The notes beneath the pieces are model-generated. The model did no database searches and was not told the origin of the DNA. It saw only the letters and a program-made list of their open reading frames with translations. Source: a virus (Duplodnaviria; Caudoviricetes). From it: a stretch of DNA of 64,000 bases. The stretch covers positions 139,775-203,774 of the IMG/VR virus record IMGVR_UViG_3300023174_000047; one strand, given 5' to 3'. A program made the translations under genes and the position numbers. Shown here one piece after another: positions 1,003 through 64,000 of the stretch; position 1 is the first letter of the stretch, and each line of letters starts with the position of its first letter.

Positions 1003-2760
1003 ATGTCTTTGATAGAAGAAATACAGAGCAATTTATACACAAAAACAAACAAAATTAATACTGCCATAATAAGGCAAGATTGGTTTAAAAAATCTAATTT
1101 GTATGCAGATATAATGAAAGAGACATCCTTTCTTGACAATGACGTATGCTTTGCAGCGCGAATATTTTGCATAGTCAATAATATCAAGAGCATGCCAGCG
1201 TGCCCTGTAACCGGTAAAAGTGTTAAGTGGTTACCTACAAAACATAGATTTGCCATTGCTGCTGGCAGATCAAATGCATCTAAAATTAAAAAAATTGATA
1301 ATGCAAAACTATCTCAAAGCCTCAAAGCATCAAAAGCATTAATCAAAAGTAACTTCTACAGCCTATACAAAACAAATAAATTTAATATTGTCAGTAGAGA
1401 AAAATGCACAGACTTTATAAAGAGCAGATTGGAACACACCGATCACGGAAGAAAGCATAATTTTGTAGATACATCTATACTTAAAAAATATCATGATGAG
1501 TGTTGCAGCATTATTCTACATACACAGCATCCATTATTAGATGATAATGATATAAACTGGAGTGAAAGGTTTTTTCTTTTGTATAATAATGATGTCCCGA
1601 AACTATGTAATTATGATCCCACACAAAAGGCAAAATTTTGCAATTTCTTAGCTGGGTACAATAACAATAGTTCTGCACAGGCAAGGAATAAAAACACATT
1701 AAAAATAATCAAGCAATCCATTGAGTATCAAAACTTCTCTATTTTAAATGATATAAACTCACATCAACAAGAGTATCAATTGAGATGCAATGTCTGTAAT
1801 AGTATTTTACAGCGAAGATTGACAAATGCGCGCTGGAAAGATATATTTTGTGCCAAATGCAACAATGTTACCGTGGGATCGTCTCGTGCAGAAGCAGAGA
1901 TATCTGCTTTTCTGCAAAATGACTGCAACATGCAGGTTGAGAGATTATATGACTTGCCACCTAGTGGAATAGAAATCGATATATTTCTACCACAGAAAAA
2001 CGTTGGTATCGAGCATCACGGCTTATTGTGGCATAGTTTTGGTTCTTGCTTCCCCGACAATGCAGATGTTGAAAGTGTAAACAAATTTAAGCATAGAAAT
2101 AAGCGGGATATATGCATGAGCAACAATGTACAGTTGTTGCAGATTTTTGAAAATGAATGGATTGATAAAAGAAACATTGTTGAGTCAATGATGCGTAGCA
2201 AGTTAGGAATATTGCAAAATAAAATCTATGCTCGCAATTGCACAATACAATGCATCACAGCAAAACAGAAAAGTATTTTTCTTAATAATAATCACATACA
2301 AGGCAATGACAATTCACAAATTGCAATTGCTCTAATTCATGAAGGTGACATTGTTGCAGCAATGACTTTTGGTAACCGCAAAATAACTGCAAATAAAACT
2401 TTTGAACTCATAAGATTTTGCTGCAAAACAAACACAAGCGTTATTGGAGGTGCCTCTAAATTATTAAAATACTTTACAAAAAAACATAATGTATCATGCA
2501 TTACAACATATGCTGATTTGAGATTTTGCTTTGATGGTTCGTTTTACAAAAACTTAGGCTTTAAGCACATCAGAACAACACCACCTGCATACTGGTACAC
2601 AGATACAAAGACTGTGATGCACCGCTCCAACTTTCAAAAACATAAATTAGTAAAACAGGGTGATGATTTGAGTCTTACAGAATGGGAAATTATGAAAGAG
2701 CGTGGGTGGCGTAGAATATGGGATTGTGGTCACATGGTTTTTGAATATAAATATTCATAA
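1003..2760 (+). CDS. Free-standing Hef-like (PD-(D/E)XK/Vsr-like) homing endonuclease with Zn-ribbons and a C-terminal GNAT/Mom-like domain
   Basis: CxxC pairs; SRAEAEI...EIDIFLP...GIEHHGLLWHS...LLQIFENEW; C-terminal NHIQG...ELIRFC...GGASKLL...TYADLRF...RIWDCG. Confidence 0.75.
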   Translation: MSLIEEIQSNLYTKTNKINTAIIRQDWFKKSNLYADIMKETSFLDNDVCFAARIFCIVNNIKSMPACPVTGKSVKWLPTKHRFAIAAGRSNASKIKKIDNAKLSQSLKASKALIKSNFYSLYKTNKFNIVSREKCTDFIKSRLEHTDHGRKHNFVDTSILKKYHDECCSIILHTQHPLLDDNDINWSERFFLLYNNDVPKLCNYDPTQKAKFCNFLAGYNNNSSAQARNKNTLKIIKQSIEYQNFSILNDINSHQQEYQLRCNVCNSILQRRLTNARWKDIFCAKCNNVTVGSSRAEAEISAFLQNDCNMQVERLYDLPPSGIEIDIFLPQKNVGIEHHGLLWHSFGSCFPDNADVESVNKFKHRNKRDICMSNNVQLLQIFENEWIDKRNIVESMMRSKLGILQNKIYARNCTIQCITAKQKSIFLNNNHIQGNDNSQIAIALIHEGDIVAAMTFGNRKITANKTFELIRFCCKTNTSVIGGASKLLKYFTKKHNVSCITTYADLRFCFDGSFYKNLGFKHIRTTPPAYWYTDTKTVMHRSNFQKHKLVKQGDDLSLTEWEIMKERGWRRIWDCGHMVFEYKYS

Positions 2761-14012: not shown

Positions 14013-14462
14013 ATGAATAAAATCAAACTACCAAATAGTGCACTGACATTTGTTAAAACTCATGAAAATGCAAAGCTACCACAGAAGAACAATCACAATG
14101 ACACAGGATATGATGTTTTTTGTGTAGAAGACAAGGTAATTGCAGCTCGTGGATCTGCAGTTGTTGATGTGGGTCTGAAATTTGCAAACATTCCTGAAGG
14201 TGTTTGGATTAAAGTAGAGGGCCGCTCCGGAATTGGCTTTAAACATGGCATTACACCCCATCCAGGAATTATTGACAATGGCTATAGATCTGATGCGGGA
14301 ATTAAATTGTACAATTTTACAGACACTGACTATCACATTAAAGCCGGTGATCGCATTGCACAATTTGTTCTATATCCCCTAATTCATGCATCATCAGTTG
14401 AATTTGGTGAACCAACTGAATCAAGTCGTGGTGAAAACGGTTTTGGATCTTCTGGGAAGTAA
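14013..14462 (+). CDS. dut: Trimeric dUTPase
   Basis: Motifs DTGYDVF, KVEGRSG, GIIDNGYR, GDRIAQFV, RGENGFGSSG. Confidence 0.96.
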   Translation: MNKIKLPNSALTFVKTHENAKLPQKNNHNDTGYDVFCVEDKVIAARGSAVVDVGLKFANIPEGVWIKVEGRSGIGFKHGITPHPGIIDNGYRSDAGIKLYNFTDTDYHIKAGDRIAQFVLYPLIHASSVEFGEPTESSRGENGFGSSGK

Positions 14463-42129: not shown

Positions 42130-42567
42130 TTAATCCAATATACTTGATGATGTCACTCGCTGCATTACATCACTAATATCATCTTCAGATGGGTTGTTAT
42201 TACCTTTTAATTCGAGCAATGCTTTGGTCCATTCATATACATTTTCATACTTTTTATTATGTAAAAACCATGATTTATGTCCGTCTGCCCGTACAATGGC
42301 AGGTCCATCTTCTCTATGCCGCATGTCATTTAAATACCATGATTTACTTCCATCTGCCCATTCATCAGCAGGTCCATCTTCTCTATGCCGCATGTCATTT
42401 AAAAACCATGATTTACTTCCATCTGCCCATTCAATAGCAGGACCATCTTCTCTATGCCGTTTGCCATTGAGCATCCATATTTTATTGCCATATCTATCAA
42501 CAGTCATAGTTGGCCGCTGCATTGCATTTTCATATAACATTACAATGTTTTTACAGTCTTTGTTCAT
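42130..42567 (-). CDS. HREDGPA-repeat protein, class A (late promoter + leader), 3 repeats
   Basis: MNKDCKNIVMLYENAM...TSSSILD; TAAATA-tacgcat-ATG. Confidence 0.9.
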   Translation of the reverse strand: MNKDCKNIVMLYENAMQRPTMTVDRYGNKIWMLNGKRHREDGPAIEWADGSKSWFLNDMRHREDGPADEWADGSKSWYLNDMRHREDGPAIVRADGHKSWFLHNKKYENVYEWTKALLELKGNNNPSEDDISDVMQRVTSSSILD

Positions 42568-42577
42568 ATGCGTATAT

Positions 42578-43123
42578 TTAATCCAATATACTTGATGAAG
42601 TCACTTGCTGCACTACATCATTGATTTGATCTTCAGAAGGTTTTTTGATGCCTTTTAATTTTAAAAGTGCTTTAGCCCATGCAAATACATCTTCATATCG
42701 GCTGCTGTTCAAATACCAACCTTTGTATCCATCTGCACGTTCAACAGCGGGCCCATCTTCTCTATGCACCTTGCCATGCAAATACCACGCTTTATCTCCA
42801 TCTGCTTGCTCAACAGCAGGACCATCCTCTCTATGCGCCTTGTCATTCAAATACCAATATTTATCTCCATTTGCACATTCAATGGCAGGACCATCTTCTC
42901 TATGCAACCTACCGTGTAAAAACCATTCTTTACGTCCATCTGTAAACTCAACAGCAGGACCATCTTCTCTATGAAACTCTCCATGCAAATACCATGCTCT
43001 ATTTCCATTTGTATATTCATGAGCAGGTCCATCTGTTCTATGCAATTTGTTTTTGATCATCCATTTTGTATTACCATGCTTATCAACAGTCATAGTTGGC
43101 TGCTGCATTATATTTTCATTCAT
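42578..43123 (-). CDS. HREDGPA-repeat protein, class B (sigma70-like promoter, no leader), 5 repeats
   Basis: TTGAAC-17-TATATT-7-ATG (MNENIM). Confidence 0.9.
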   Translation of the reverse strand: MNENIMQQPTMTVDKHGNTKWMIKNKLHRTDGPAHEYTNGNRAWYLHGEFHREDGPAVEFTDGRKEWFLHGRLHREDGPAIECANGDKYWYLNDKAHREDGPAVEQADGDKAWYLHGKVHREDGPAVERADGYKGWYLNSSRYEDVFAWAKALLKLKGIKKPSEDQINDVVQQVTSSSILD

Positions 43124-43164
43124 TGCTTTCAATATAAAGTATATGTTGTAGATGTTCAAGCACT

Positions 43165-43533
43165 TTAATCCAATATACTTGAAGATGTTACTTGCTGCAC
43201 TTTATCATTGATCTCATCTTCAGAAGGATCATTAATGCCTTTTAATTTAAGTAAGGCTTCAGCCCATGCAACTACATCTTCATATCGGCTGTTGTTCAAA
43301 TACCAACTTTTGTATCCATCTGCATGCTCAACGGCAGGACCATCTTCTCTATGCCGCATGTCATGCAACCACCACGCTTTACTTCCATCTGCATATTCTA
43401 CAGCAGGTCCATCTTCCCGGTGCCATTTGCCATTGAGTCTCCATATTTTAGTGCCATCTTTATCAACAGTCATAGTTGGCTGCTGCATTGCATTTTCATA
43501 CAGCATCGCAATGTTTTTGTTGTCTCTGTTCAT
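43165..43533 (-). CDS. HREDGPA-repeat protein, class A, 2 repeats
   Basis: MNRDNKNIAMLYENAM; TAAATA-tacgcat-ATG. Confidence 0.9.
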   Translation of the reverse strand: MNRDNKNIAMLYENAMQQPTMTVDKDGTKIWRLNGKWHREDGPAVEYADGSKAWWLHDMRHREDGPAVEHADGYKSWYLNNSRYEDVVAWAEALLKLKGINDPSEDEINDKVQQVTSSSILD

Positions 43534-43582
43534 ATGCGTATATTTAACCTAATATGCTTGATTAAATCGCATGATATACTCA

Positions 43583-53055: not shown

Positions 53056-53149
53056 TTAGTGATATACTAATGCATATTGTAGATTGCTGATTAAAATATC
53101 AATCAGCAATCTACTTTTATTTAATATTCCATATAAATATGCATATACT

Positions 53150-54364
53150 ATGCATAAAATTTTATTAACAGAAATGAACAGGAAAAGTCGAATCATCGAA
53201 ATGTGGAAAGGTACAGGTCTGTGGGAAAAATGTTCAGAAGCAAGACGCAATAAGCTTTTAGCTACAATACAAAAAATGATTGAAGCGACTGGCGGTGGTA
53301 CAGAAGAATATGCAGAGTATGTTATGTGGCTTGCACGCATCATTAAACGTGGATTGTTATCCGTTGCCGGTAAACAAGGGCTAAAAAGAATTCAAGCAGA
53401 TGTATATGAAGGTAGACACACCACTGGTCAGGCGATAATGCGTGCACAAAACGATTATTACGCTTTTGTGGGGGATAGAACAATTGCTTTCTTTCAGATG
53501 CTTAAAACTATTAAAGAGGCTGCTGAAGAATGTAAAATCGATCCGAAATTCATTGAAGTTATGGACATTCGCAAAGGAAAGCAGCAATTCAATGCAGACG
53601 GTACACCAAAGGTTAAGCGCATAGAATTCAAACCTATGGAAGAACTCCTAAAAGTTAAAGTCACCAGAACGTCAGCGGCAGGCCGTCAAATTGATCGCCC
53701 TGTAGTACTAGATAGAGCGGAACCAGCAGCAGGTTCAGTTTATGATGACATTAATAAAGTATTGGCACCCCTGGGTGATGCAAGCCGTTTGCCTAAAGGT
53801 GAAAAATTAATGACGTTTGAAGATGGTACATACTGGACATTTGTTGATCAAATAACTTGTAAAGTTGAAGGCCGACTAGGGGGTCACTGCGGCAATGCTG
53901 ATCCTGATGCAGGTGATTCTATTATTTCCTTACGCAAGCCTAATGGAGTAGGGATGGGTGTACCTGCAGCCACCTTCATTTATAATAAAAACCGAAATGA
54001 TCTTTCAGAGATGAAAGCCAACCACAACCTGAAGCCTAATGATGCTGAACATAAATATATAGTTGAGTTATTATCAAAATCCAAATTTACAGTAAGCGAT
54101 ATAAATATAAATATAAAATATTTGAAAGGTGCCAGAGCCCTACCGCACATGGATTTTTCGCTCAATGATTTGTCAGAGCAAATGTTTAAGCAATTATGCC
54201 AAGAAAATCCCACATTGATAAAAACTCAAATTCAAAACGCAGAAAAAGTAAATATTCAACAAAAGCTTGATAAAGAGCATATAAAATGGTTTAACGAAAC
54301 TAATAACCCAAATACAAACAATCAAAATGAAACTAATTCTACTATAAAATATATGCAGGATTAG
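53150..54364 (+). CDS. PcfJ-like-domain late protein, possibly an internal head protein; start near 53150
   Basis: EGRLGGHCGN...IISLR...EMKANHNLKP resembles the PcfJ-like EG..MGHCVG pattern; TATAAATA 53132-53139; N-terminal ILLTE. Confidence 0.55.
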   Translation: MHKILLTEMNRKSRIIEMWKGTGLWEKCSEARRNKLLATIQKMIEATGGGTEEYAEYVMWLARIIKRGLLSVAGKQGLKRIQADVYEGRHTTGQAIMRAQNDYYAFVGDRTIAFFQMLKTIKEAAEECKIDPKFIEVMDIRKGKQQFNADGTPKVKRIEFKPMEELLKVKVTRTSAAGRQIDRPVVLDRAEPAAGSVYDDINKVLAPLGDASRLPKGEKLMTFEDGTYWTFVDQITCKVEGRLGGHCGNADPDAGDSIISLRKPNGVGMGVPAATFIYNKNRNDLSEMKANHNLKPNDAEHKYIVELLSKSKFTVSDININIKYLKGARALPHMDFSLNDLSEQMFKQLCQENPTLIKTQIQNAEKVNIQQKLDKEHIKWFNETNNPNTNNQNETNSTIKYMQD

Positions 54365-54426
54365 CGGGAATAATATCTAATGATTTGTTGTGCATTTGCA
54401 TAAAGCGCATATTATTAAATACAAGC

Positions 54427-54861
54427 ATGAACATGGACTGCAAAAATATTACAAAGCTATATGAGAATGCAAAACAGCAGCCAATTTTAGATATCCTACC
54501 CAATGGAACTAAAATGTGGTGGTTGCACGGTGTGTGGCATAATGAAAATGAACCAGCCGTTGTTTATCCTAACGGAACTGAAGAATGGTATCTGCATGGT
54601 AAGTTGCACAATGCAAATGGACCAGCCGTTAAAAGTCTTCTCGGTTCCTCGTGGTACTTGCACGGCAAAGTTCACAGAGAAGATGGACCTGCTGTTGAAC
54701 GTGCAGACGGATATAATTCTTGGTGGTTGAATAATAAAAAATATAAAGATGTATTTGAATGGGCTAGAGCTCTACTTAAAATGAAAGGCATCAATGATCC
54801 TTCTGAAGATCAAATTAATGATAAAGTGCAGCAAGTGACTTCTGCAAGTATATTGGATTAA
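54427..54861 (+). CDS. Array gene 1, class A, 3 repeats (most divergent copy)
   Basis: MNMDCKNITKLYENA; HNENEPA/HNANGPA/HREDGPA; TAAATA 54416-54421. Confidence 0.88.
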   Translation: MNMDCKNITKLYENAKQQPILDILPNGTKMWWLHGVWHNENEPAVVYPNGTEEWYLHGKLHNANGPAVKSLLGSSWYLHGKVHREDGPAVERADGYNSWWLNNKKYKDVFEWARALLKMKGINDPSEDQINDKVQQVTSASILD

Positions 54862-54869
54862 ATATATCC

Positions 54870-55445
54870 ATGAACAAAGACAACAAAAACATCATGATGC
54901 TGTATGAAAATGCAATGCAGCAGCCAACTATAACTGTTGATACAGGTGGTAATAAAAGGTGGATGCTCAATGGCAAGATGCATAGAGAAGATGGTCCTGC
55001 TTTTGAAAATGCACATGGATATAAATCATGGTATTTGCATGGCGAGATGCATAGAGAAGATGGACCTGCTGTTGAACGTGCAGATGGAGGTAAAGCATGG
55101 TACTTGCATGGCATGCGGCATAGAGAAGATGGCCCTGCCATTGAACGTGCAAATGGAGATAAAGAATGGTATTTGCATGGTAGGTTGAATAGAGAAGATG
55201 GACCTGCTGTTGAACGTGCAGATGGAGGTAAAGCATGGTACTTGCATGGCATGCGGCATAGAGAAGATGGGCCTGCCGTTGAATGGGCTGATGGACGCAA
55301 AGGTTGGTATTTGCATGGCAAATGGTATGAAGATGTATTTGCATGGGCTAAAGCACTTTTTAAATTAAAAGGCATCAATAATCCATCTGAAGATGAGATC
55401 AATGATAAAGTGCAGCAAGTGACTTCATCAAGTATATTGGATTAA
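54870..55445 (+). CDS. Array gene 2, class A, 5 repeats
   Basis: TAAATA-tatcc-ATG; 191 aa. Confidence 0.92.
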   Translation: MNKDNKNIMMLYENAMQQPTITVDTGGNKRWMLNGKMHREDGPAFENAHGYKSWYLHGEMHREDGPAVERADGGKAWYLHGMRHREDGPAIERANGDKEWYLHGRLNREDGPAVERADGGKAWYLHGMRHREDGPAVEWADGRKGWYLHGKWYEDVFAWAKALFKLKGINNPSEDEINDKVQQVTSSSILD

Positions 55446-55455
55446 ATATACGCAT

Positions 55456-56100
55456 ATGAACAAAGACTGTAAAAACATTGCGATGTTATATGAAAATACA
55501 ATGCAGCAGCCAACTATGACTGTTGATAGATATGGCAATAAAACATGGATGCTCAATGGCAAATTGCACAGAGAAGATGGTCCTGCTGTTGAGCGTGCAA
55601 ATGGAGATAAATTTTGGTATTTGAATGGCAAGATACATAGAGAAGATGGACCCGCTGTTGAGTATGCTGATGGATATAAAGCATGGTATTTGCATGACAA
55701 GTTGCATAGAGAAGATGGCCCTGCTGTTGAACGTGAAAATGGAGATAAAGAATGGTATTTGCATGGTAGGTTGAATAGAGAAGATGGTCCTGCCTATGAA
55801 GGTGCAGATGGAGATAAATCATGGTATTTGAATGACAAGTTGCATAGAGAAGATGGGCCTGCCATTGAACGCGTAGACGGATATAAAGCATGGTATTTGC
55901 ATGGCGAGTTGCATAGAGAAGATGGGCCTGCCGTTGAATATCCTAATGGATATAAAGCATGGTGTTTGAACAACAGCCGATATGAAGATGTAGTTGCATG
56001 GGCTAAAGCACTTTTAAAATTAAAAGGCATCAAAAAACCTTCTGAAGATGAGATCAATGATAAAGTGCAGCAAGTGACTTCTGCAAGTATATTGGATTAA
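55456..56100 (+). CDS. Array gene 3, class A, 6 repeats
   Basis: TAAATA-tacgcat-ATG; 214 aa. Confidence 0.92.
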   Translation: MNKDCKNIAMLYENTMQQPTMTVDRYGNKTWMLNGKLHREDGPAVERANGDKFWYLNGKIHREDGPAVEYADGYKAWYLHDKLHREDGPAVERENGDKEWYLHGRLNREDGPAYEGADGDKSWYLNDKLHREDGPAIERVDGYKAWYLHGELHREDGPAVEYPNGYKAWCLNNSRYEDVVAWAKALLKLKGIKKPSEDEINDKVQQVTSASILD

Positions 56101-56110
56101 ATATACGCAT

Positions 56111-56479
56111 ATGAACAGAGACAACAAAAACATTGTGATGCTGTATGAAAATGCAATGCAGCAGCCAACTATGACTGCTGATGAAGGTGGTACTAAATGG
56201 TGGAGGCTCAATGGCAAATTGCATAGAGAAGATGGTCCTGCTGTTGAATATGAAAATGGATATAAAGCATGGTTTTTAAATGACGTGCGGCATAGAGAAG
56301 ATGGACCTGCTGTTGAATGGGCAGATGGAAGTAAATCATGGTATTTGCGTGGCAGCCGGTATGAAGATGTATTTGCATGGGCTCGAGCACTACTTAAAAT
56401 GAAAGGCATCAAAAAACCTTCTGAAGATCAAATCACTGATAAAGTGCAGCAAATAACATCTTCAAGTATATTAGATTAA
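56111..56479 (+). CDS. Array gene 4, class A, 2 repeats
   Basis: TAAATA-tacgcat-ATG; 122 aa. Confidence 0.92.
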   Translation: MNRDNKNIVMLYENAMQQPTMTADEGGTKWWRLNGKLHREDGPAVEYENGYKAWFLNDVRHREDGPAVEWADGSKSWYLRGSRYEDVFAWARALLKMKGIKKPSEDQITDKVQQITSSSILD

Positions 56480-56487
56480 ATATACAC

Positions 56488-56994
56488 ATGAGCAAAGATA
56501 ACAAAAACATCATAATGCTATATGAAAATGCAATGCAGCAGCCAACTATGACTGTTGATAAGAGCGGCAATAAAATATGGAGACTTAATGACAAATTGCA
56601 TAGAGAAGATGGCCCTGCCTATGAAGGTGCAAGTGGATATAAAGCATGGTTTTTAAATGACATGCGGCATAGAGAAGATGGCCCTGCCATTGAACGTGCA
56701 AATGGAGATAAAGAATGGTATTTGCATGGCAAGTTGTATAGAGAAGATGGCCCTGCCGTTGAGTATGCAAATGGAAATAAAGCATGGTATTTAAATGGCA
56801 GGTTGCATAGAGAGGATGGCCCTGCCGTTGAGTATGCAGATGGATATAAAAGGTGGTATTTGTATGGCAGAAAGTATGAAGATATATTTGAATGGGCCAG
56901 AGTATTACTTAAATTAAAAGGCATCAATGATCCTTCTGAAGATGAAATCAATGATGTAGTTCAGCAAGTAACTTCATCAAGTATACTGGATTAA
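56488..56994 (+). CDS. Array gene 5, class A, 4 repeats
   Basis: TAAATA-tacac-ATG; 168 aa. Confidence 0.92.
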   Translation: MSKDNKNIIMLYENAMQQPTMTVDKSGNKIWRLNDKLHREDGPAYEGASGYKAWFLNDMRHREDGPAIERANGDKEWYLHGKLYREDGPAVEYANGNKAWYLNGRLHREDGPAVEYADGYKRWYLYGRKYEDIFEWARVLLKLKGINDPSEDEINDVVQQVTSSSILD

Positions 56995-57035
56995 AATACT
57001 TGAACATCTGCAACATATACTTTATATTGAAGGCA

Positions 57036-57443
57036 ATGAATGAAAATGCAATGTACCAGCCAACTATGATTGTTGATAAGAACGGCAATAAAAGATGGAG
57101 GCTCAATGGCAAATATCATAGAGAAGATGGACCTGCCGTTGAAAATGCAAATGGATGTAAATTGTGGTTTCTGCATGGCAAATTGCATAGAGAAGATGGA
57201 TCTGCCTATGAAGGTGTAGATGGAACTAAAGCATGGTTTTTAAATGACATGCGGCATAAAGAAGATGGCCCTGCCGTTGAGTATGCAGATGGAGATAAAG
57301 AATGGTGGTTGCATGGCAGAATTTATGAAGATGCAATTACATGGGCTGAAGCACTTCTCATATCAAAAGGCATTAATGATCCTTCTGAAGATGAGATCAA
57401 TGATAAAGTGCAACAAGTAACATCTTCAAGTATATTGGATTAA
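57036..57443 (+). CDS. Array gene 6, class B, 3 repeats
   Basis: TTGAAC(57000)-17-TATATT(57023)-7-ATG. Confidence 0.9.
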   Translation: MNENAMYQPTMIVDKNGNKRWRLNGKYHREDGPAVENANGCKLWFLHGKLHREDGSAYEGVDGTKAWFLNDMRHKEDGPAVEYADGDKEWWLHGRIYEDAITWAEALLISKGINDPSEDEINDKVQQVTSSSILD

Positions 57444-57451
57444 ATATATCC

Positions 57452-58030
57452 ATGAGCAAAGACAACAAAAACATCATGATGCTGTATGAAAATGCAATGC
57501 AGCAGCCAACTATGAAGTTTGATGATAATAGTGGCAATAAAATATGGAGGCTCGATGGCAAATGGCACAGGGAAGATGGCCCTGCCGTTAAATATGCAGA
57601 TGGAAGTAAAGCATGGTATTTGCATGGCAAGCAGCATAGAGAAGATGGACCTGCCTATGAAGGTGCAGATGGATATAAATCATGGTTTTTACATGGCAGG
57701 CGGCATAGAGAAGATGGACCTGCCATTGAACATGCAAATGGAGATAAAGAATGGTTTTTACATGGCAAGTTGCATAGAAAAGATGGCCCTGCCTATGAAG
57801 ATGCAAATGGAACTAAAGCATGGTATTTGCATGGCGAGTTGCATAGAGAAGATGGTCCTGCTTTTGAATATGCAGATGGACGCGAAGAATGGTATTTAAT
57901 TGGCAGCCCATATGAAGATGTATTTGAATGGGCTGAAGCATTACTTAAAATGAAAGGTATCAATGATCCTTCTGAAGATCAAATCAATGATGTAGTGCAG
58001 CAAGTAACTTCATCAAGTATATTGGATTAA
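57452..58030 (+). CDS. Array gene 7, class A, 5 repeats
   Basis: TAAATA-tatcc-ATG; 192 aa. Confidence 0.92.
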   Translation: MSKDNKNIMMLYENAMQQPTMKFDDNSGNKIWRLDGKWHREDGPAVKYADGSKAWYLHGKQHREDGPAYEGADGYKSWFLHGRRHREDGPAIEHANGDKEWFLHGKLHRKDGPAYEDANGTKAWYLHGELHREDGPAFEYADGREEWYLIGSPYEDVFEWAEALLKMKGINDPSEDQINDVVQQVTSSSILD

Positions 58031-58071
58031 AATGCTTGAACATCTACAGTAAAGACATTATATTGAAAGCA

Positions 58072-58479
58072 ATGAATAATAATACAATGCAGCAACCAAC
58101 CATGACTGTTGATACAGGTGGTAATAAATGGTGGAGGCTCAATGGCGAGTTGCATAGAGAAGATGGACCCGCCATTGAACATGCAGATGGAGATAAAGCA
58201 TGGTATCTGCATGGTGAGTTGCATAGAGAAGATGGCCCAGCCTTTGAATATGCAAATGGATTTAAATTATGGTATTTGCATGGCAAGTGTCATAGAGAAG
58301 ATGGGCCCGCCGTTGAACATGCAAATAGATATAAAGAATGGTGGTTACATGGCAACTGGTATGAAGATGTATTTGAATGGGTCAGAGCATTACTTAAAAT
58401 GAAAGGCATCAATGATCCTTCTGAAGATCAAATCAATGATAAAGTGCAGCAAATAACATCTGCAAGTATATTGGATTAA
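58072..58479 (+). CDS. Array gene 8, class B, 3 repeats
   Basis: TTGAAC(58036)-17-TATATT-7-ATG. Confidence 0.9.
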   Translation: MNNNTMQQPTMTVDTGGNKWWRLNGELHREDGPAIEHADGDKAWYLHGELHREDGPAFEYANGFKLWYLHGKCHREDGPAVEHANRYKEWWLHGNWYEDVFEWVRALLKMKGINDPSEDQINDKVQQITSASILD

Positions 58480-58519
58480 AATGCTTGAACATCTGCAATA
58501 GAGACATTACATTAAAGCA

Positions 58520-58858
58520 ATGAATGAAAATGCAATGCAGCAGCCAACTATGACCGTTGATGAGTCTGGCGTTAAAAAATGGAGGCTCAATGGCAAATTG
58601 CATAGAGAAGATGGTCCTGCTGTTGAATATGCAAATGGAAATAAAGCATGGTATTTGAATGGTAGATATCATAGAGAAGATGGCCCTGCTTTTGAAAATG
58701 CAAGTGGACACAAAGGTTGGTATTTGAATAATAGACTATATGAAGATATACTTGAATGGGCTAGAGCATTACTCACATCAAAAGGCATCAATGATCCTTC
58801 TGAAGATCAAATTAATGATAAAGTGCAGCAAGTGACTTCATCAAGTATATTGGATTAA
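58520..58858 (+). CDS. Array gene 9, class B, 2 repeats
   Basis: TTGAAC(58485)-17-TACATT-6-ATG; 112 aa. Confidence 0.9.
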   Translation: MNENAMQQPTMTVDESGVKKWRLNGKLHREDGPAVEYANGNKAWYLNGRYHREDGPAFENASGHKGWYLNNRLYEDILEWARALLTSKGINDPSEDQINDKVQQVTSSSILD

Positions 58859-58866
58859 ATATACAC

Positions 58867-59373
58867 ATGAATAAAGACAACAAAAACATCATGATGCTGT
58901 ATGAAAATGCAATGCAGCAGCCAACTATGACTGTTGATAGATATGGCAATAAAATATGGAGACTCGATGGCAAATGGCACCGGGAAGACGGACCTGCTTA
59001 TGAATATGCAAATGGAGATAAAGAATGGTATTTGCATGGCAAGTTGCATAGAGAAGATGGTCCTGCTGCTGAACATGCAGACGGAACTAAGGCATGGTAT
59101 TTGAATGGCTTCTATCATAGAGAAAATGGCCCCGCCGTTGAAAGAGCAAATGGAACTAAAGCATGGTGGTTGCATGGCAAGTTGCATAGAGAAGATGGCC
59201 CTGCTATTGAACGCGCAGACGGATATAAATCATGGTATGTAAATGACATTAAATATGAGGATATCTTTGCATGGGCCGAGGCATTACTTAAAATGAAAGG
59301 CATCAATGATCCTTCTGAAGATCAAATCAATGGTAAAGTGCAGCAAGCAACATCTGCAAGTATATTGGATTAA
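58867..59373 (+). CDS. Array gene 10, class A, 4 repeats
   Basis: TAAATA-tacac-ATG; 168 aa. Confidence 0.92.
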   Translation: MNKDNKNIMMLYENAMQQPTMTVDRYGNKIWRLDGKWHREDGPAYEYANGDKEWYLHGKLHREDGPAAEHADGTKAWYLNGFYHRENGPAVERANGTKAWWLHGKLHREDGPAIERADGYKSWYVNDIKYEDIFAWAEALLKMKGINDPSEDQINGKVQQATSASILD

Positions 59374-59414
59374 AATGCTTGAACATCTGCAATGGAGACA
59401 TTATATTGAAAGCA

Positions 59415-59891
59415 ATGAATAATAATACAATGCAGCAGCCAATTATGATTGTTGATGAGTATGGCACTAAAAGATGGAAGCTCAATAGCAAACGGCATAG
59501 AGAAGATGGTCCTGCTGTTGAATGTGCAAATGGAGATAAATATTGGTTTTTGAATGACAAGGCGCATAGAGAGGATGGTCCCGCCGTTGAGCTTACAGAC
59601 GGAACTAAGGAATGGTACTTGCATGGCAAGATGCATAGAGAAGATGGACCCGCTGTTGAGTATGCTAATGGAGATAAATATTGGTATTTGAATAGCAAAG
59701 CGCATAGAGAAGATGGACCTGCCATTGAATATGCAGATGGAACTAAAGCATGGTACTTGCATGGCAACTGGTATAAAAATGTATTTGCATGGGCCAAAGC
59801 ATTACTTAAAATGAAAGGCATCAATGATCCTTCTGAAGATGAGATTAACGATAAAGTACAGCAAGCAACATCTGCAAGTATATTGGATTAA
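59415..59891 (+). CDS. Array gene 11, class B, 4 repeats
   Basis: TTGAAC(59379)-17-TATATT-7-ATG. Confidence 0.9.
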   Translation: MNNNTMQQPIMIVDEYGTKRWKLNSKRHREDGPAVECANGDKYWFLNDKAHREDGPAVELTDGTKEWYLHGKMHREDGPAVEYANGDKYWYLNSKAHREDGPAIEYADGTKAWYLHGNWYKNVFAWAKALLKMKGINDPSEDEINDKVQQATSASILD

Positions 59892-59931
59892 AATACTTGA
59901 ACATCTACAGTAAAGACATTACATTAAAGCA

Positions 59932-60339
59932 ATGAATGAAAATGCAATGCATCAGCCAACTATGACTGTTGATAGATATGGTAATAAAATATGGATGCTC
60001 AATGGCAAGCGGCATAAAGAAGATGGACCTGCCGTTGAAAATGCAAATGGATGTAAATTGTGGTATTTGCATGGCGAGGTGCATAGAGAAGATGGTCCTG
60101 CCGTTGAATATGCAAATGGAGATAAAGCATGGTATTTGAATGGCGTGTGGCATAGAGAAGATGGTCCTGCCATTGAACGTGCAAATGGATTTAAATCATG
60201 GTGGTTGCATGGCAAATGTTATGAAGATGCATTTACCTGGTCTAGAGTCCTACTTAAAATGAAAGGGATCAATGATCCGTCTGAAGATGAGATTAACGAT
60301 AAAGTACAGCAAGCAACATCTGCAAGTATATTGGATTAA
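59932..60339 (+). CDS. Array gene 12, class B, 3 repeats
   Basis: TTGAAC(59897)-17-TACATT-6-ATG. Confidence 0.9.
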   Translation: MNENAMHQPTMTVDRYGNKIWMLNGKRHKEDGPAVENANGCKLWYLHGEVHREDGPAVEYANGDKAWYLNGVWHREDGPAIERANGFKSWWLHGKCYEDAFTWSRVLLKMKGINDPSEDEINDKVQQATSASILD

Positions 60340-60379
60340 AATGCCTGGATATCTATAATAAAGACATTACATTAAAGCA

Positions 60380-60787
60380 ATGAATGAAAATGCAATGCAC
60401 CAGCCAACTATAATTGTTGATAGGCGCGGCAATAAAACATGGATACTCAATGGTAAATATCATAGAGAAGATGGCCCTGCCTTTGAATATCCTAATGGAA
60501 CTAAAATATGGTTTCTATATGGCAAGATGCATAGAGAAGATGGCCCTGCCATTGAATATGCAGATGGAAGTAAAGCATGGTACTTGCATGGCGTGTGGCA
60601 TAGAGAAGATGGACCTGCCATTGAATATGCAGATGGAACTAAAGCATGGTACTTGCATGGCAACTGGTGTGAAGATGTATTTGCATGGGCTCGAGCATTA
60701 CTTAAAATGAAAGGCATCAAAAAACCTTCTGAAGATGAGATCAATGATGAAGTGCAGCAAGTGACTTCTGCAAGTATATTGGATTAA
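60380..60787 (+). CDS. Array gene 13, class B, 3 repeats
   Basis: CTGGAT(60345)-17-TACATT-6-ATG (degenerate -35). Confidence 0.9.
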   Translation: MNENAMHQPTIIVDRRGNKTWILNGKYHREDGPAFEYPNGTKIWFLYGKMHREDGPAIEYADGSKAWYLHGVWHREDGPAIEYADGTKAWYLHGNWCEDVFAWARALLKMKGIKKPSEDEINDEVQQVTSASILD

Positions 60788-60828
60788 AATGCTTGAACAT
60801 CTGCAATGGAGACATTATATCGAAAGCA

Positions 60829-61443
60829 ATGAATGAAAATGCAATGCACCAGCCAACTATGACTGTTGATAGAGACGGCACTAAATGGTGGGAGCTCAAT
60901 GGCAAACGGCATAGAGAGGATGGCCCTGCCATTGAATGTGCAAATGGAGATAAATATTGGTTTTTGAATGACAAGGCGCATAGAGAGGATGGTCCCGCCG
61001 TTGAGCTTACAGACGGAACTAAGGAATGGTACTTGCATGGCAAGATGCATAGAGAAGATGGACCCGCTGTTGAGTATGCTAATGGAGATAAATATTGGTA
61101 TTTGAATAGCAAAGCGCATAGAGAGGATGGCCCTGCCGTTGAGCTTACAGACGGAACTAAGGAATGGTACTTGCATGGCAAGATGCATAGAGAGGATGGT
61201 CCCGCCGTTGAGCTTACAGACGGAACTAAGGAATGGTACTTGCATGGCAAGATGCATAGAGAAGATGGACCCGCTGTTGAAAATGCAAATGGAGATAAAG
61301 AATGGTATTTGCATGGCAAATATTATGAAGATGTATTTGCCTGGGCTAGAGCATTACTTAAAATGAAAGGCATCAAAAAACCTTCCGAAGATCAAATCAA
61401 TGATATAGTGCAGCAAGCAACATCTGCAAGTATATTGGATTAA
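60829..61443 (+). CDS. Array gene 14, class B, 6 repeats
   Basis: TTGAAC(60793)-17-TATATC-7-ATG; 204 aa. Confidence 0.9.
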   Translation: MNENAMHQPTMTVDRDGTKWWELNGKRHREDGPAIECANGDKYWFLNDKAHREDGPAVELTDGTKEWYLHGKMHREDGPAVEYANGDKYWYLNSKAHREDGPAVELTDGTKEWYLHGKMHREDGPAVELTDGTKEWYLHGKMHREDGPAVENANGDKEWYLHGKYYEDVFAWARALLKMKGIKKPSEDQINDIVQQATSASILD

Positions 61444-61483
61444 AATACTTGAACATCTACAATGGAGACTTTATATTAAAGCA

Positions 61484-61891
61484 ATGAATGAAAATGCAAT
61501 ACATCATCCAACTATGACTGTTGATACGAGTGGCACTAAATGGTGGAAACTCAATGGCAAATTGCACCGGGAAGACGGACCTGCCATTGAACATGCAGAT
61601 GGATATAAAACATGGTATTTGCATGGCGAGTTGCATAGAGAAGATGGACCAGCCTTCGAGTGGGCAAATGGAGATAAAGTATGGTGTTTGCATGGCAAGC
61701 GGCATAGAGAAGATGGTCCTGCCGTTGAGTATGCAAATGGACGCAAAGGTTGGTATTTGAACAACAGCCGATATGAAGATGTATTTGCATGGGCCAAGGC
61801 ATTACTTAAATTAAAAGGCATCAATGATCCGTCTGAAGATCAAATTAATGATAAAGTACAGCAAGTGACTTCATCAAGTATATTGGATTAA
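61484..61891 (+). CDS. Array gene 15, class B, 3 repeats
   Basis: TTGAAC(61449)-17-TATATT-6-ATG. Confidence 0.9.
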   Translation: MNENAIHHPTMTVDTSGTKWWKLNGKLHREDGPAIEHADGYKTWYLHGELHREDGPAFEWANGDKVWCLHGKRHREDGPAVEYANGRKGWYLNNSRYEDVFAWAKALLKLKGINDPSEDQINDKVQQVTSSSILD

Positions 61892-61901
61892 ATATACGCA
61901 T

Positions 61902-62615
61902 ATGAACAAAGACAACAAAAACATCATGATGCTGTATGAAAATGCAATGCATCAGCCAACTATGACTGTTGATACGAGTGGCACTAAATGGTGGAAGCTC
62001 AATGGCAAATTGCATAGAGAAGATGGTCCTGCCGTTGAATATGCAAATGGAGATAAAGCATGGTATTTGAATGGCAAATTGCATAGAGAAGATGGTCCTG
62101 CCGTTGAATATGCAAATGGAGATAAAGCATGGTATTTGAATGGCAAATTGCATAGAGAAGATGGTCCTGCCGTTGAATATGCAAATGGAGATAAAGCATG
62201 GTATTTGAATGGCGAGTTGCATAGAGAAGATGGTCCTGCTGTTGAACATGCAAGTGGAACTAAAGCATGGTACTTGCATGGCAAGATGCATAGAGAAGAT
62301 GGACCTGCTGTTGAGTATGCTAATGGATATAAAGCATGGTGGCTGAAAGGCAAATATCATAGAAAAGACGGCCCTGCCTATGAAGATGCAAATGGAACTA
62401 AAGCATGGTATTTGCATGGCAAGCGGCATAGAGAAGATGGACCTGCCATTGAATATGCAGATGGAACTAAAGCATGGTACTTGCATGGCAACTGGTATAA
62501 AAATGTATTTGCATGGGCCAAGGCATTACTTAAAATGAAAGGCATCAATGATCCTTCTGAAGATGAGATTAACGATAAAGTGCAGCAAGCAACATCTGCA
62601 AGTATATTGGATTAA
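61902..62615 (+). CDS. Array gene 16, class A, 7 repeats
   Basis: TAAATA-tacgcat-ATG; 237 aa. Confidence 0.92.
   Translation: MNKDNKNIMMLYENAMHQPTMTVDTSGTKWWKLNGKLHREDGPAVEYANGDKAWYLNGKLHREDGPAVEYANGDKAWYLNGKLHREDGPAVEYANGDKAWYLNGELHREDGPAVEHASGTKAWYLHGKMHREDGPAVEYANGYKAWWLKGKYHRKDGPAYEDANGTKAWYLHGKRHREDGPAIEYADGTKAWYLHGNWYKNVFAWAKALLKMKGINDPSEDEINDKVQQATSASILD
62001..62207 (+). repeat. Three identical 69-bp tandem copies
   Basis: aatggcaaattgcatagagaagatggtcctgccgttgaatatgcaaatggagataaagcatggtatttg x3. Confidence 0.93.
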
Positions 62616-62655
62616 AATGCTTGGATATCTGCAAAGAGACTTTATATTAAAAGTA

Positions 62656-63135
62656 ATGAATGAAAATGCAATGCAGCAGCCAACTATGATGGTTGATGAA
62701 AAAGGCACTAAATGGTGGACGCTCAATGGCAAATATCATAGAGAAGATGGACCTGCCATTGAACATGCAAGTGGATCTAAAGCATGGTGGTATTTGCATG
62801 GCAAGTTGCATAGAAAAGATGGCCCTGCCATTGAATATACAAATGGAGATAAAGAATGGTATTTGCATGGCAAGCGGCACAGAGAGGGTGGACCTGCTAT
62901 CGATTGGGTGAGCGGAACTAAAGCATGGTGGTTGAATGATAAATATCATAGAGAAGATGGCCCTGCTATTGAATATGCAGATGGAAATAAATCATGGTAT
63001 TTGAATGATGCATGGTATGAGGATGCAGTTGAATGGGCAGAAGCATTGCTTAAATTAAAAGGCAACAAAAATCCTTCTGAAGATGAGATTAACGATAAAG
63101 TACAGCAAGCAACATCTGCAAGTATATTGGATTAA
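62656..63135 (+). CDS. Array gene 17, class B, 4 repeats
   Basis: TTGGAT(62621)-16-TATATT-7-ATG; one-residue insertion (KAWWYL). Confidence 0.9.
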   Translation: MNENAMQQPTMMVDEKGTKWWTLNGKYHREDGPAIEHASGSKAWWYLHGKLHRKDGPAIEYTNGDKEWYLHGKRHREGGPAIDWVSGTKAWWLNDKYHREDGPAIEYADGNKSWYLNDAWYEDAVEWAEALLKLKGNKNPSEDEINDKVQQATSASILD

Positions 63136-63175
63136 AATGCTTGGATATCTATAATAAAGACATTACATTAAAGCA

Positions 63176-63583
63176 ATGAATGAAAATGCAATACATCAGC
63201 CAACTATGACTGTTGATGTGGGTGGCAATAAAATATGGAAGCTCAATGGCAAATATCACAGAGAAGATGGACCTGCTGCAGAATATGCTGATGGAGATAA
63301 AGCATGGTACTTGCATGGCATGCGGCACAGAAAAGATGGCCCTGCCTATGAAGGTGCAAATGGAGATAAATCATGGTATTTGCATGGTATGTTGCATAGA
63401 GAAGATGGACCTGCCTTTGAACATGCAAGTGGACGCAAAGGTTGGTATTTGCATGGCAAATGGTATGAAGATATATTTGAATGGGCTAGAGTCCTACTTA
63501 AAATGAAAGGCATCAATGATCCTTCTGAAGATCAAATCAATGATGTAGTGCAGCAAGTGACTTCTGCAAGTATATTGGATTAA
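63176..63583 (+). CDS. Array gene 18, class B, 3 repeats
   Basis: TTGGAT(63141)-17-TACATT-6-ATG. Confidence 0.9.
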   Translation: MNENAIHQPTMTVDVGGNKIWKLNGKYHREDGPAAEYADGDKAWYLHGMRHRKDGPAYEGANGDKSWYLHGMLHREDGPAFEHASGRKGWYLHGKWYEDIFEWARVLLKMKGINDPSEDQINDVVQQVTSASILD

Positions 63584-63593
63584 ATATACGCAT

Positions 63594-63962
63594 ATGAACA
63601 GAGACAACAAAAACATCATGATGCTGTATGAAAATGCAATGCAGCAGCCAACCATGACTGTTGATAAAGGTGGCACTAAATGGTGGAGGCTCAATGGCAA
63701 ATTGCATAGAGAAGATGGCCCCGCCGTTGAGTATACAAATGGAGATAGAGAATGGTATTTGAATGACAAGTTGCATAGAGAAGATGGCCCTGCTTTTGAA
63801 GGTGCAGATGGAGATAAAGAATGGTATTTGAATGGCAAATGGTGTAAAGATATATTTGCATGGGCTCGAGCATTACTTAAAATGAAAGGGATCAATGATC
63901 CGTCTGAAGATGAGATTAACGATAAAGTACAGCAAGCAACATCTGCAAGTATATTGGATTAA
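63594..63962 (+). CDS. Array gene 19, class A, 2 repeats
   Basis: TAAATA-tacgcat-ATG; 122 aa. Confidence 0.92.
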   Translation: MNRDNKNIMMLYENAMQQPTMTVDKGGTKWWRLNGKLHREDGPAVEYTNGDREWYLNDKLHREDGPAFEGADGDKEWYLNGKWCKDIFAWARALLKMKGINDPSEDEINDKVQQATSASILD

Positions 63963-63967
63963 AATGC

Positions 63968-63996
63968 CTGGATATCTATAATAAAGACATTACATT
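63968..63996 (+). promoter_or_regulatory. Class B promoter of a 20th array gene that starts just beyond the window
   Basis: CTGGAT-17-TACATT, same linker sequence as before gene 13. Confidence 0.8.
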
Positions 63997-64000
63997 AAAG

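Follow-up and report, generated by a model that had tools for sequence, protein, structure and literature searches.

Two alternative 5' modules, late-type and sigma70-type, in a tandem array of MORN-type repeat genes of an uncultivated T4-like phage

The final 64 kb (hereafter the window) of a single 203,774-bp viral contig (IMG/VR record IMGVR_UViG_3300023174_000047, positions 139,775 to 203,774) derives from an uncultivated freshwater T4-like myovirus, distant from the known T4-like phages, and contains a tandem array of genes for a repeat protein family, here called the HREDGPA family after its 23-residue unit, xKxWYLxGxxHREDGPAxExxxG. We found that the genes of this family begin with one of two 5' cassettes, either a late-type TAAATA box followed by ten extra codons (class A) or a sigma70-type promoter without these codons (class B), and that the two kinds are interspersed in front of gene bodies that are apparently common to both. 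The explanation that we favor for the array as a whole, and consider fairly probable from the architecture of the sequence, is a two-module early/late array with possible virion packaging of the class A proteins.

The two 5' cassettes and the common gene bodies

Family genes were located by a motif scan and extraction of open reading frames (ORFs). The window contains 22 HREDGPA genes; 19 of them follow one another head to tail without interruption on the + strand (54427-63962), and the other three are on the - strand (42130-43533). They divide exactly into 11 class A and 11 class B genes, with an additional class B cassette cut by the contig end, which is the census given by the initial annotation of this DNA; the interval named there, 54416-63996, covers the 19 genes of the + strand and misses the three on the - strand. 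The contig is broken inside the array, its 3' end lying inside a class B cassette and its 5' start inside a repeat, and four further family genes and one fragment are present at the contig start, outside the window. In total, the genome has at least 26 intact family genes (at least 12 of class A and at least 14 of class B), which make up 6.5% of the ~204-kb genome; because of the break inside the array, this total is only a lower bound.

In the class A cassettes of the window, the gap between TAAATA and ATG is 5 nt in five copies and 7 nt in six, and the TAAATA core is found at one of these two distances in all 12 class A cassettes of the genome. At the copies inside the array, the preceding gene ends with the TAA of this box. 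The class A proteins begin with M(N/S)xDxKNIxxLYEN, in which the leader MNKDNKNIMMLYE precedes N. The class B genes of the window have a linker of 40-41 nt, with a -35 element (TTGAAC in eight copies, TTGGAT in two, and CTGGAT in one), a 17-nt spacer (16 nt once), and a -10 element (TATATT in six, TACATT in four, and TATATC in one), after which ATG follows 6-7 nt later, and their proteins begin with MNENAM or MNNNTM. A strict sigma70 pattern (-35 TTGxxx, spacer of 16-18 nt, and -10 TAxxxT) is present in 9 of the 11 class B cassettes of the window and in 12 of the 14 in the genome; the two window cassettes outside this pattern are the one with CTGGAT and the one with TATATC. The initial annotation had stated that the class B proteins are 10 aa shorter; when the proteins are aligned, class A differs by ten additional residues at the N-terminus, and its LYE lies over MNE of class B. 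The extension is coupled to the late-type box, since it is found in 12 of 12 class A genes and in none of 14 class B genes.

Three other interpretations of the cassettes were discarded. By eye, the two cassettes resemble each other (ATGAAC in one and TTGAAC in the other, ACATCATGATG and ACATTATATTG), and the alignment scores were not significant compared with shuffled sequences (P 0.05-0.36); therefore, common descent of the A and B cassettes is not claimed. Translation of some class B genes from an in-frame TTG (MNICNGDIILKA-MNEN) was ruled out because the linker is 40 nt or 41 nt depending on the copy; in the ORF listing, such an in-frame TTG start was present in only 4 of the 10 class B copies on the + strand. 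Finally, AATGCTTGA in the class B cassettes was considered as a MotA box and ruled out by inspection, as this sequence is about 19 nt away from the -10 element, compared with about 12 nt in T4, and its TGC is not conserved.

For the gene bodies, trees were made from two parts, the 96 nt that follow the cassette (N-region) and the final 132 nt (C-cap). The class label changes 9 times on the N-region tree and 8 times on the C-cap tree, compared with means of 8.9 and 8.6 for shuffled labels, and the identity within a class equals the identity between classes (0.79 for the N-region and 0.83 for the C-cap). For example, the N-regions of the class B gene at 61484 and the adjacent class A gene at 61902 group together. 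Because the class labels are unclustered on the body trees, the single shuffled repertoire proposed in the initial annotation is supported; furthermore, as the bodies are fully shuffled between the classes, an early/late reading of the cassettes is well supported. Judging by these trees, the cassette is a discrete module on recombining bodies. A close strain that was assembled independently (ENA and JGI contigs) also has both classes, and the order of the genes in its small cluster is A, A, B, B, A, compared with A, B, A in this genome.

General promoter types of the genome and their relation to start codons

In the genome, 53 of 240 non-family genes have a TAAATA that starts between -14 and -9, compared with 0.33% of control ATGs (P about 1e-78), and its position has a sharp peak at -11 and -12, which corresponds to 5-6 nt to ATG. 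Of the TAAATA-N5/6-ATG sites in the genome, 59 of 65 (91%) open an ORF of at least 45 aa, compared with 21% of random ATGs. The genome consensus of the late box is ATAAATA. Genes of this type are mostly structural where annotated and include those for the portal, tail sheath stabiliser, tape-measure-like, tail fibre-like, baseplate, and holin-like proteins; several very large unannotated proteins of this type are probably structural. A sigma70-like arrangement, aGTTGAwt-N16-TAtAwT-N5-6-ATG, precedes 32 of the 240 non-family genes, compared with 1.2% of controls (P about 1e-23), and the genes with it include those for DNA polymerase, a helicase, UvsY, DnaB, dut, and a RadA-like ATPase. None of the 240 genes has both promoter forms. 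Together, the two types lie 5-7 nt from ATG at 85 non-family genes, with examples at window positions 14013 (dut), 44419 (RadA-like), 4136, 6999, and 9016. This genome scan agrees with the observation in the initial annotation that TAAATA precedes tube, baseplate, and lysis genes and that the sigma70-like form precedes dut and the RadA-like gene.

The T4 late promoter consists of an 8-bp TATA box at the -10 position (PMC2988020), and the class A box is a TATAAATA-like -10 element, as in T4-type late promoters. A homologue of the late sigma factor gp55 is encoded at genome 81109-81528 (phrog_234 profile, E 8.3e-25). A single-sequence phmmer search with T4 gp55 and gp45 gave no match in this genome, and PHROG scans of candidate small proteins gave no gp55; the phrog_234 profile then found it. 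The gp55 gene adjoins genes that we take to be gp47 and gp46, as in T4, and only the SbcC-like gp46 of these is confirmed by PHROG. The late versus early promoter assignment made in the initial annotation is supported by the mutually exclusive architectures (53 and 32 of the 240 genes) and by the gp55 homologue. The sequence comparison supports the view that the A and B cassettes are instances of the two mutually exclusive general promoter types of this phage, and the assignment of class A to putative late expression and class B to putative early expression is well supported.

Strict Shine-Dalgarno (SD) motifs are found upstream of none of the 83 promoter-bearing genes and upstream of 3% of the remaining genes, and an SD-like motif is found in none of 23 family cassettes. 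The gap distributions of both promoter types have a peak at 5-6 nt to ATG, and with either type, the expected transcription start is on the A of ATG or 1-2 nt before it. Since SD motifs are almost absent, the transcripts probably start at or beside AUG, and the early and the late transcripts of the phage both appear to be leaderless or near-leaderless. In a literature search for leaderless early or late transcription in T4-like phages, no report was found, which is an absence of hits and not a proof of novelty. The genome-wide leaderless pattern also hints at a host with SD-independent initiation.

In T4, the genes e and soc and the I-TevI gene have a late promoter within a hairpin, and in early read-through RNA this hairpin hides the start site. 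Similarly, at the class A junctions of the array, an inverted repeat, GTATATT-GGATTA-AATATAC, spans the TAAATA box (for example, at window 54835-54875, 55420-55465, and 61870-61910). In read-through RNA, this repeat would fold with an energy between -4.4 and -8.3 kcal/mol, with z down to -3.5, and the hairpin pairs at least a part of AUG in 7 of 12 copies and all three bases in four. Unlike the T4 examples, the class A hairpin is weak, does not always include AUG, and has no SD motif to mask. It could be a device for late-only translation like that of T4 gene e, which we give only as a weak lead.

The class A leader and alternative explanations

In T4, the gp21 protease cleaves after L/I-x-E, and the capsid-targeting sequence (CTS) consists of 10 residues; the first ten residues of the internal protein IPIII suffice for packaging, with positions 4 and 7 used for targeting and positions 8 and 10 for processing (PMC9026906). 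In the T4 record, IPII and IPIII begin with MKTYQEFIAE/A and IPI begins with MKTFKEF...ITE/A (the slash marks the cleavage point). The class A leader likewise ends in L-x-E (L11-Y12-E13), and its residues D4, K6, N7, I8, L11, Y12, and E13 are invariant in the 12 copies, with synonymous variation at several of the invariant codons, including those of I8, L11, and E13. The prohead protease of this phage (genome 32763-33452) matches phrog_207 (E 1e-60), which is the gp21 family, and the scaffold protein begins with MGNTNNNFVDIIKE/A. By manual alignment, we take CLSE/ANVGG of the capsid protein to be the counterpart of the T4 gp23 cleavage site, LTE/AEIGG. From these sites we infer that gp21-type specificity was probably kept in the protease of this phage.

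Leaders ending in L-x-E are also found in four adjacent late-promoter genes at genome 14810-18996 (812, 116, 167, and 90 aa). Three of them carry T4-CTS-like leaders, MITFEQVYKELLAE, MITFDKFYMLSE, and MQFDDLYQKLME (MITFEQVY... and MITFDKFY...; compare T4 MKTYQEFIAE), and the fourth, which encodes an unrelated small protein, has a leader similar to that of class A, MQHDNEKIFILYE. The CTS-like leaders of this cluster are found in none of the 32 early genes, although the patterns for this comparison were chosen post hoc. Searches of Pfam and PHROG with the four genes gave no match. This cluster at 14.8-19.0 kb is also a candidate internal-protein locus. In a related T4-like phage (L022; IMGVR_UViG_3300013137_000468, 155-2542), two HREDGPA genes with the leaders MQFNNLYNLLME and MNFNKLYHLLVE immediately precede the genes for the prohead protease, scaffold, and capsid, at the place that the prohead core genes occupy in T4, and beside them is the gene for a very acidic 284-aa protein beginning with MNKIQSDWELLAE. 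The L022 phage has ordinary SD sites and distal TATAAATA boxes. In a more distant array (L015), the A-like leader MHNDATNIFNLYQE and TAAATA-N5-ATG are present in two of three genes.

In the explanation that we favor, a tandemly amplified and recombining MORN-type repeat family would have one of two discrete modules at the 5' end of each gene, in which module A is a gp55-type late box, (T)TAAATA, with ten extra codons and module B is a host sigma70-type promoter. As suggested by this architecture, the B copies would be made early by unmodified host RNA polymerase and the A copies late by the gp55-programmed polymerase, and the bodies behind both modules would be drawn from one recombining pool. 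Because the promoters abut the start codon and SD motifs are lacking, each gene is probably translated mainly from its own transcript, which is leaderless or has a leader of 1-2 nt. In a less certain step, a gp21-type protease would remove the A-specific helix after L-Y-E, and the A copies would be packed in the head and injected; it is quite possible, although we would not count on it, that the leader is such a prohead-targeting propeptide and that packaging and cleavage take place. The A copies would then be analogous to the T4 internal proteins and Alt, and the B copies would be the early-made counterpart, analogous to ModA and ModB. In its fullest form, which we put forward with some doubt, one hypervariable repertoire of binders would be delivered by two routes according to a swappable 5' cassette, either targeted to the prohead, trimmed, and injected or synthesized in the first minutes of infection; recombination would move bodies between the routes, and the early and late transcripts would be leaderless genome-wide.

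Several observations weigh against this explanation. For the early assignment, a caveat is that weakened hexamers are found in two class B copies of the window and in the copy cut by the contig end. For the late assignment, T precedes TAAATA in class A, whereas A is the majority base genome-wide and T is found in just 7 of the 53 late genes; the 7-nt gap, which most class A copies have, lies in the tail of the gap distribution of the genome; and a gp45 homologue was looked for in the genome and not detected (a gp44 homologue is encoded). No terminators on the + strand were found inside the array, so that read-through from upstream promoters is likely and could blur the timing; with such read-through, the timing at the protein level depends on translation mainly from a 5'-terminal AUG. 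As for the leader, D4 and N7 stand where the T4 CTS has aromatic targeting residues at positions 4 and 7. Furthermore, [LIM]xE is common at residues 9-18, where it occurs in 27% of the late N-termini, in 22% of the early ones, and in 15% of the others, a difference that is not significant (Fisher P 0.10). Distant homologues carry LYQE, LYVE, or LHAE, and thus P3 is not L and is not conserved there, and one lineage (L016) has a leader without TAAATA. The internal proteins of T4 are basic, whereas the family proteins are acidic (pI 5.0-6.5).

These points on the leader bear on an alternative, which we think is rather unlikely, that the cassettes are real and the class A proteins are not packaged; the extension would be an ancestral N-terminal cap helix or have another late role, and class B would be a truncated derivative. 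A-like leaders (xDxxKIxxLYxE) in distant homologues would make the helix an old part of the family, and residues 3-16 were modelled by AlphaFold2 as one helix continuous with ENAM. The mismatch to the T4 CTS at the targeting positions, the frequency of LxE by chance, and the acidity of the proteins also favor this alternative. However, the fold does without the extension in the fourteen intact B copies, and the extension is strictly tied to the late promoter (12 of 12 versus 0 of 14). The A-like leader on an unrelated small late protein, within a cluster of CTS-like late genes, and the location of leader-bearing HREDGPA genes inside the L022 head module also speak against it.

A very improbable alternative is that the cassettes are not promoters, and that the array is one polycistron in which TAAATA is a by-product of the TAA stop and the sigma70-like match of class B is a coincidence in AT-rich DNA. 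The lack of internal terminators fits a polycistron, TAAATA begins with the stop codon of the gene upstream, and a generic scan for sigma70-like sequences was only modestly enriched (60 versus 44 +/- 7). Two class A genes that lead a cluster seem by eye to keep remnants of a family 3' end; however, these two copies keep TAAATA despite diverged flanks. The same arrangements are present at 53 and 32 unrelated genes, which are partitioned by function and of which none carries both forms, 91% of the TAAATA-N5/6-ATG sites open real ORFs, and gp55 is encoded. Furthermore, without SD motifs, a polycistron would require internal initiation with no obvious signal.

If the two-module early/late reading holds, a diversifying protein family would have its regulatory and targeting information in an exchangeable module at the 5' end, and the array would be a natural example of how phages set the timing and the route of counter-defence or host-takeover proteins. 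The T4 capsid-targeting principle would then reach a distant lineage and a new leader sequence, and the leader would be a compact tag for loading cargo into heads. Furthermore, the genome is a clear T4-like case in which promoters of both the sigma70 type and the gp55 type lie right at the start codon and SD motifs are almost absent; thus, leaderless translation in such phages and their host becomes directly testable from this genome.

Protein family, related systems, and layout of the array

A 168-aa class A protein (gene 58867..59373) was modelled by AlphaFold2 from a 71-sequence alignment with a mean predicted local distance difference test (pLDDT) score of 91.8; a model made with 13 sequences had a pLDDT of 54 and was not used. 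The model consists of a helix at residues 3-16 (pLDDT 59-74), confident beta-hairpin repeats, and two C-terminal helices. The repeats form a single-layer beta-hairpin fold, for which Foldseek gave matches to MORN1, MORN4, and junctophilin (probability up to 1.0, E 1e-4 to 1e-3) and, in a viral library, to proteins of uncultured tailed phages, giant viruses, and the jumbo phage Atu_ph07. In Pfam, the score for DUF6745 was 41.7 (over the cut-off of 27) and that for MORN_2 was 19.5 (under the cut-off of 29.6), and relatives are named YwqK antitoxin in some sources. The single-layer hairpin repeats are thus common to MORN proteins (TbMORN1, MORN4, and junctophilin), the YwqK-type variant, and the HREDGPA family, whereas the N-terminal helix and the two-helix C-terminal cap are its own. 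The 23-residue unit has eight nearly invariant positions and five of high variability (entropy 2.4-3.0 bits), a pattern that fits a binding scaffold. The MORN fold, together with the annotation of relatives as YwqK-immunity-like, suggests a likely biochemical role in which the variable repeat faces bind host proteins.

Tandem arrays of 3-12 HREDGPA/MORN-variant genes were also seen in many unrelated IMG/VR viral contigs (our loci L017-L095; for example, L024, L025, L036, L053, L070, L071, and L084), each with its own conserved intergenic linker. These arrays mostly have short N-termini and ordinary SD sites. The HREDGPA/DUF6745 MORN-variant is a widespread, unexplained multigene family of phages.

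Among known systems, the CTS of T4 IPI, IPII, and IPIII is similar to the class A leader, a putative short N-terminal propeptide that likewise ends in (L/I)-x-E, on small, fast-evolving late proteins, in a phage with a gp21-family protease; the proposed role, injection with the DNA against host defences, is also similar (PMC9026906). The class A leader MNKDNKNIMMLYE differs in having no aromatic residues at positions 4 and 7, which carry the targeting in T4, and the proteins behind it are acidic MORN-type repeats encoded in a tandem array of ~26 copies. Alt, ModA, and ModB of T4 are paralogues. Alt is a late product that is packaged into the head and injected, and ModA and ModB are made early (PMC2988021). 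One functional family of three ADP-ribosyltransferases is thus deployed twice, both packaged and early-made, and the statement in the initial annotation that no such system had been described was overstated for this reason (PMC2988021). In T4, however, the three genes are dispersed, with no array and no interchangeable promoter/leader cassette before a shared pool of bodies. The PeSL cassettes of T4-type phages, which are a repeated intergenic early promoter with a stem-loop, are substrates of recombination for shuffling (PMC2839356, PMC4122927) and, like the cassettes described here, recur between small variable genes as conserved intergenic regulatory modules. There is one kind of PeSL (an early promoter and a terminator-like hairpin), whereas there are two alternative modules here, one of which changes the N-terminus of the protein. 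A stable stem-loop like that of PeSLs was not found in the class B linkers, which folded no better than shuffled sequences (z 0.1-0.4). What is new here is the form, that is, two alternative 5' modules interspersed in one tandem array before common recombining repeat-protein bodies, one of which alters both the promoter class and the N-terminus, in a genome whose promoters of either class lie directly before the start codon.

The three genes on the - strand are a class A gene at 42130..42567 (145 aa, 3 repeats; TAAATA 42575-42580, gap 7), a class B gene at 42578..43123 (181 aa; TTGAAC-N17-TATATT 43131-43159, ATG after 7 nt), and a class A gene at 43165..43533 (122 aa; TAAATA 43541-43546, gap 7), upstream of which the sequence resembles by eye a remnant of a family 3' end. 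The main array on the + strand starts with five class A genes. The first, at 54427..54861 (144 aa; TAAATA 54416-54421, gap 5), has degenerate repeats, and it is followed by those at 54870..55445 (191 aa; TAAATA 54859-54864, in which TAA is the upstream stop, gap 5), 55456..56100 (214 aa; TAAATA 55443-55448, gap 7), 56111..56479 (122 aa; TAAATA 56098-56103, gap 7), and 56488..56994 (168 aa; TAAATA 56477-56482, gap 5). Then come a class B gene at 57036..57443 (135 aa; TTGAAC-N17-TATATT 57000-57028, ATG after 7 nt), a class A gene at 57452..58030 (192 aa; TAAATA 57441-57446, gap 5), two class B genes at 58072..58479 (135 aa; TTGAAC-N17-TATATT 58036-58064) and 58520..58858 (112 aa; TTGAAC-N17-TACATT 58485-58513), and the modelled class A gene (TAAATA 58856-58861, gap 5). 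The next five genes are all of class B, at 59415..59891 (158 aa; TTGAAC-N17-TATATT 59379-59407), 59932..60339 (135 aa; TTGAAC-N17-TACATT 59897-59925), 60380..60787 (135 aa; CTGGAT-N17-TACATT 60345-60373, with the weakened -35), 60829..61443 (204 aa; TTGAAC-N17-TATATC 60793-60821), and 61484..61891 (135 aa; TTGAAC-N17-TATATT 61449-61477). After a class A gene with 7 repeats at 61902..62615 (237 aa; TAAATA 61889-61894, gap 7), the array continues with class B genes at 62656..63135 (159 aa; TTGGAT-N16-TATATT 62621-62648) and 63176..63583 (135 aa; TTGGAT-N17-TACATT 63141-63169) and a class A gene at 63594..63962 (122 aa; TAAATA 63581-63586, gap 7). The class B cassette cut by the contig end, TAAAATGCCTGGAT...TACATTAAAG, is at 63960..64000 on the + strand, and the array resumes at the contig start. 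There, three class B units are fused in frame in a 559-aa gene (genome 1514-3193); the units are joined as ...ALLKLKAMNEN... by in-frame reading of the B linker, and the C-terminal end of the product is a different repeat domain (YFENS.GYW.K.EYDEKGN). This gene shows that recombination between cap and linker yields multi-unit proteins.

The T4-type character of the genome was seen with PHROG profiles for components of the head and tail (portal, major head protein, prohead protease, tail sheath stabiliser, and baseplate wedge) and of replication and recombination (UvsX, UvsY, and the SbcC-like gp46 homologue); both the DNA polymerase and the terminase are split. In a phage collection, the identity of the capsid (head) protein to its nearest relatives, cyanophage gp23, was about 33% and at most ~34%. 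Searches of the INPHARED phage collection at the near-DNA and protein levels with the window DNA and the tape-measure-like protein gave no matches, and near-identical DNA is present in lake and freshwater metagenomes of several studies. The last gene before the main array, 53150-54364, encodes a 404-aa product without a family match, and just ahead of it is an intrinsic terminator (window 53079-53114), a strong 14-bp hairpin with a T-run. Homing-endonuclease-like genes are located at window 1003-2760 and at genome 134646-135872, with Mom-like C-terminal matches to phrog_3339 and phrog_1384, and the former has a TAAATA late-type box in front.

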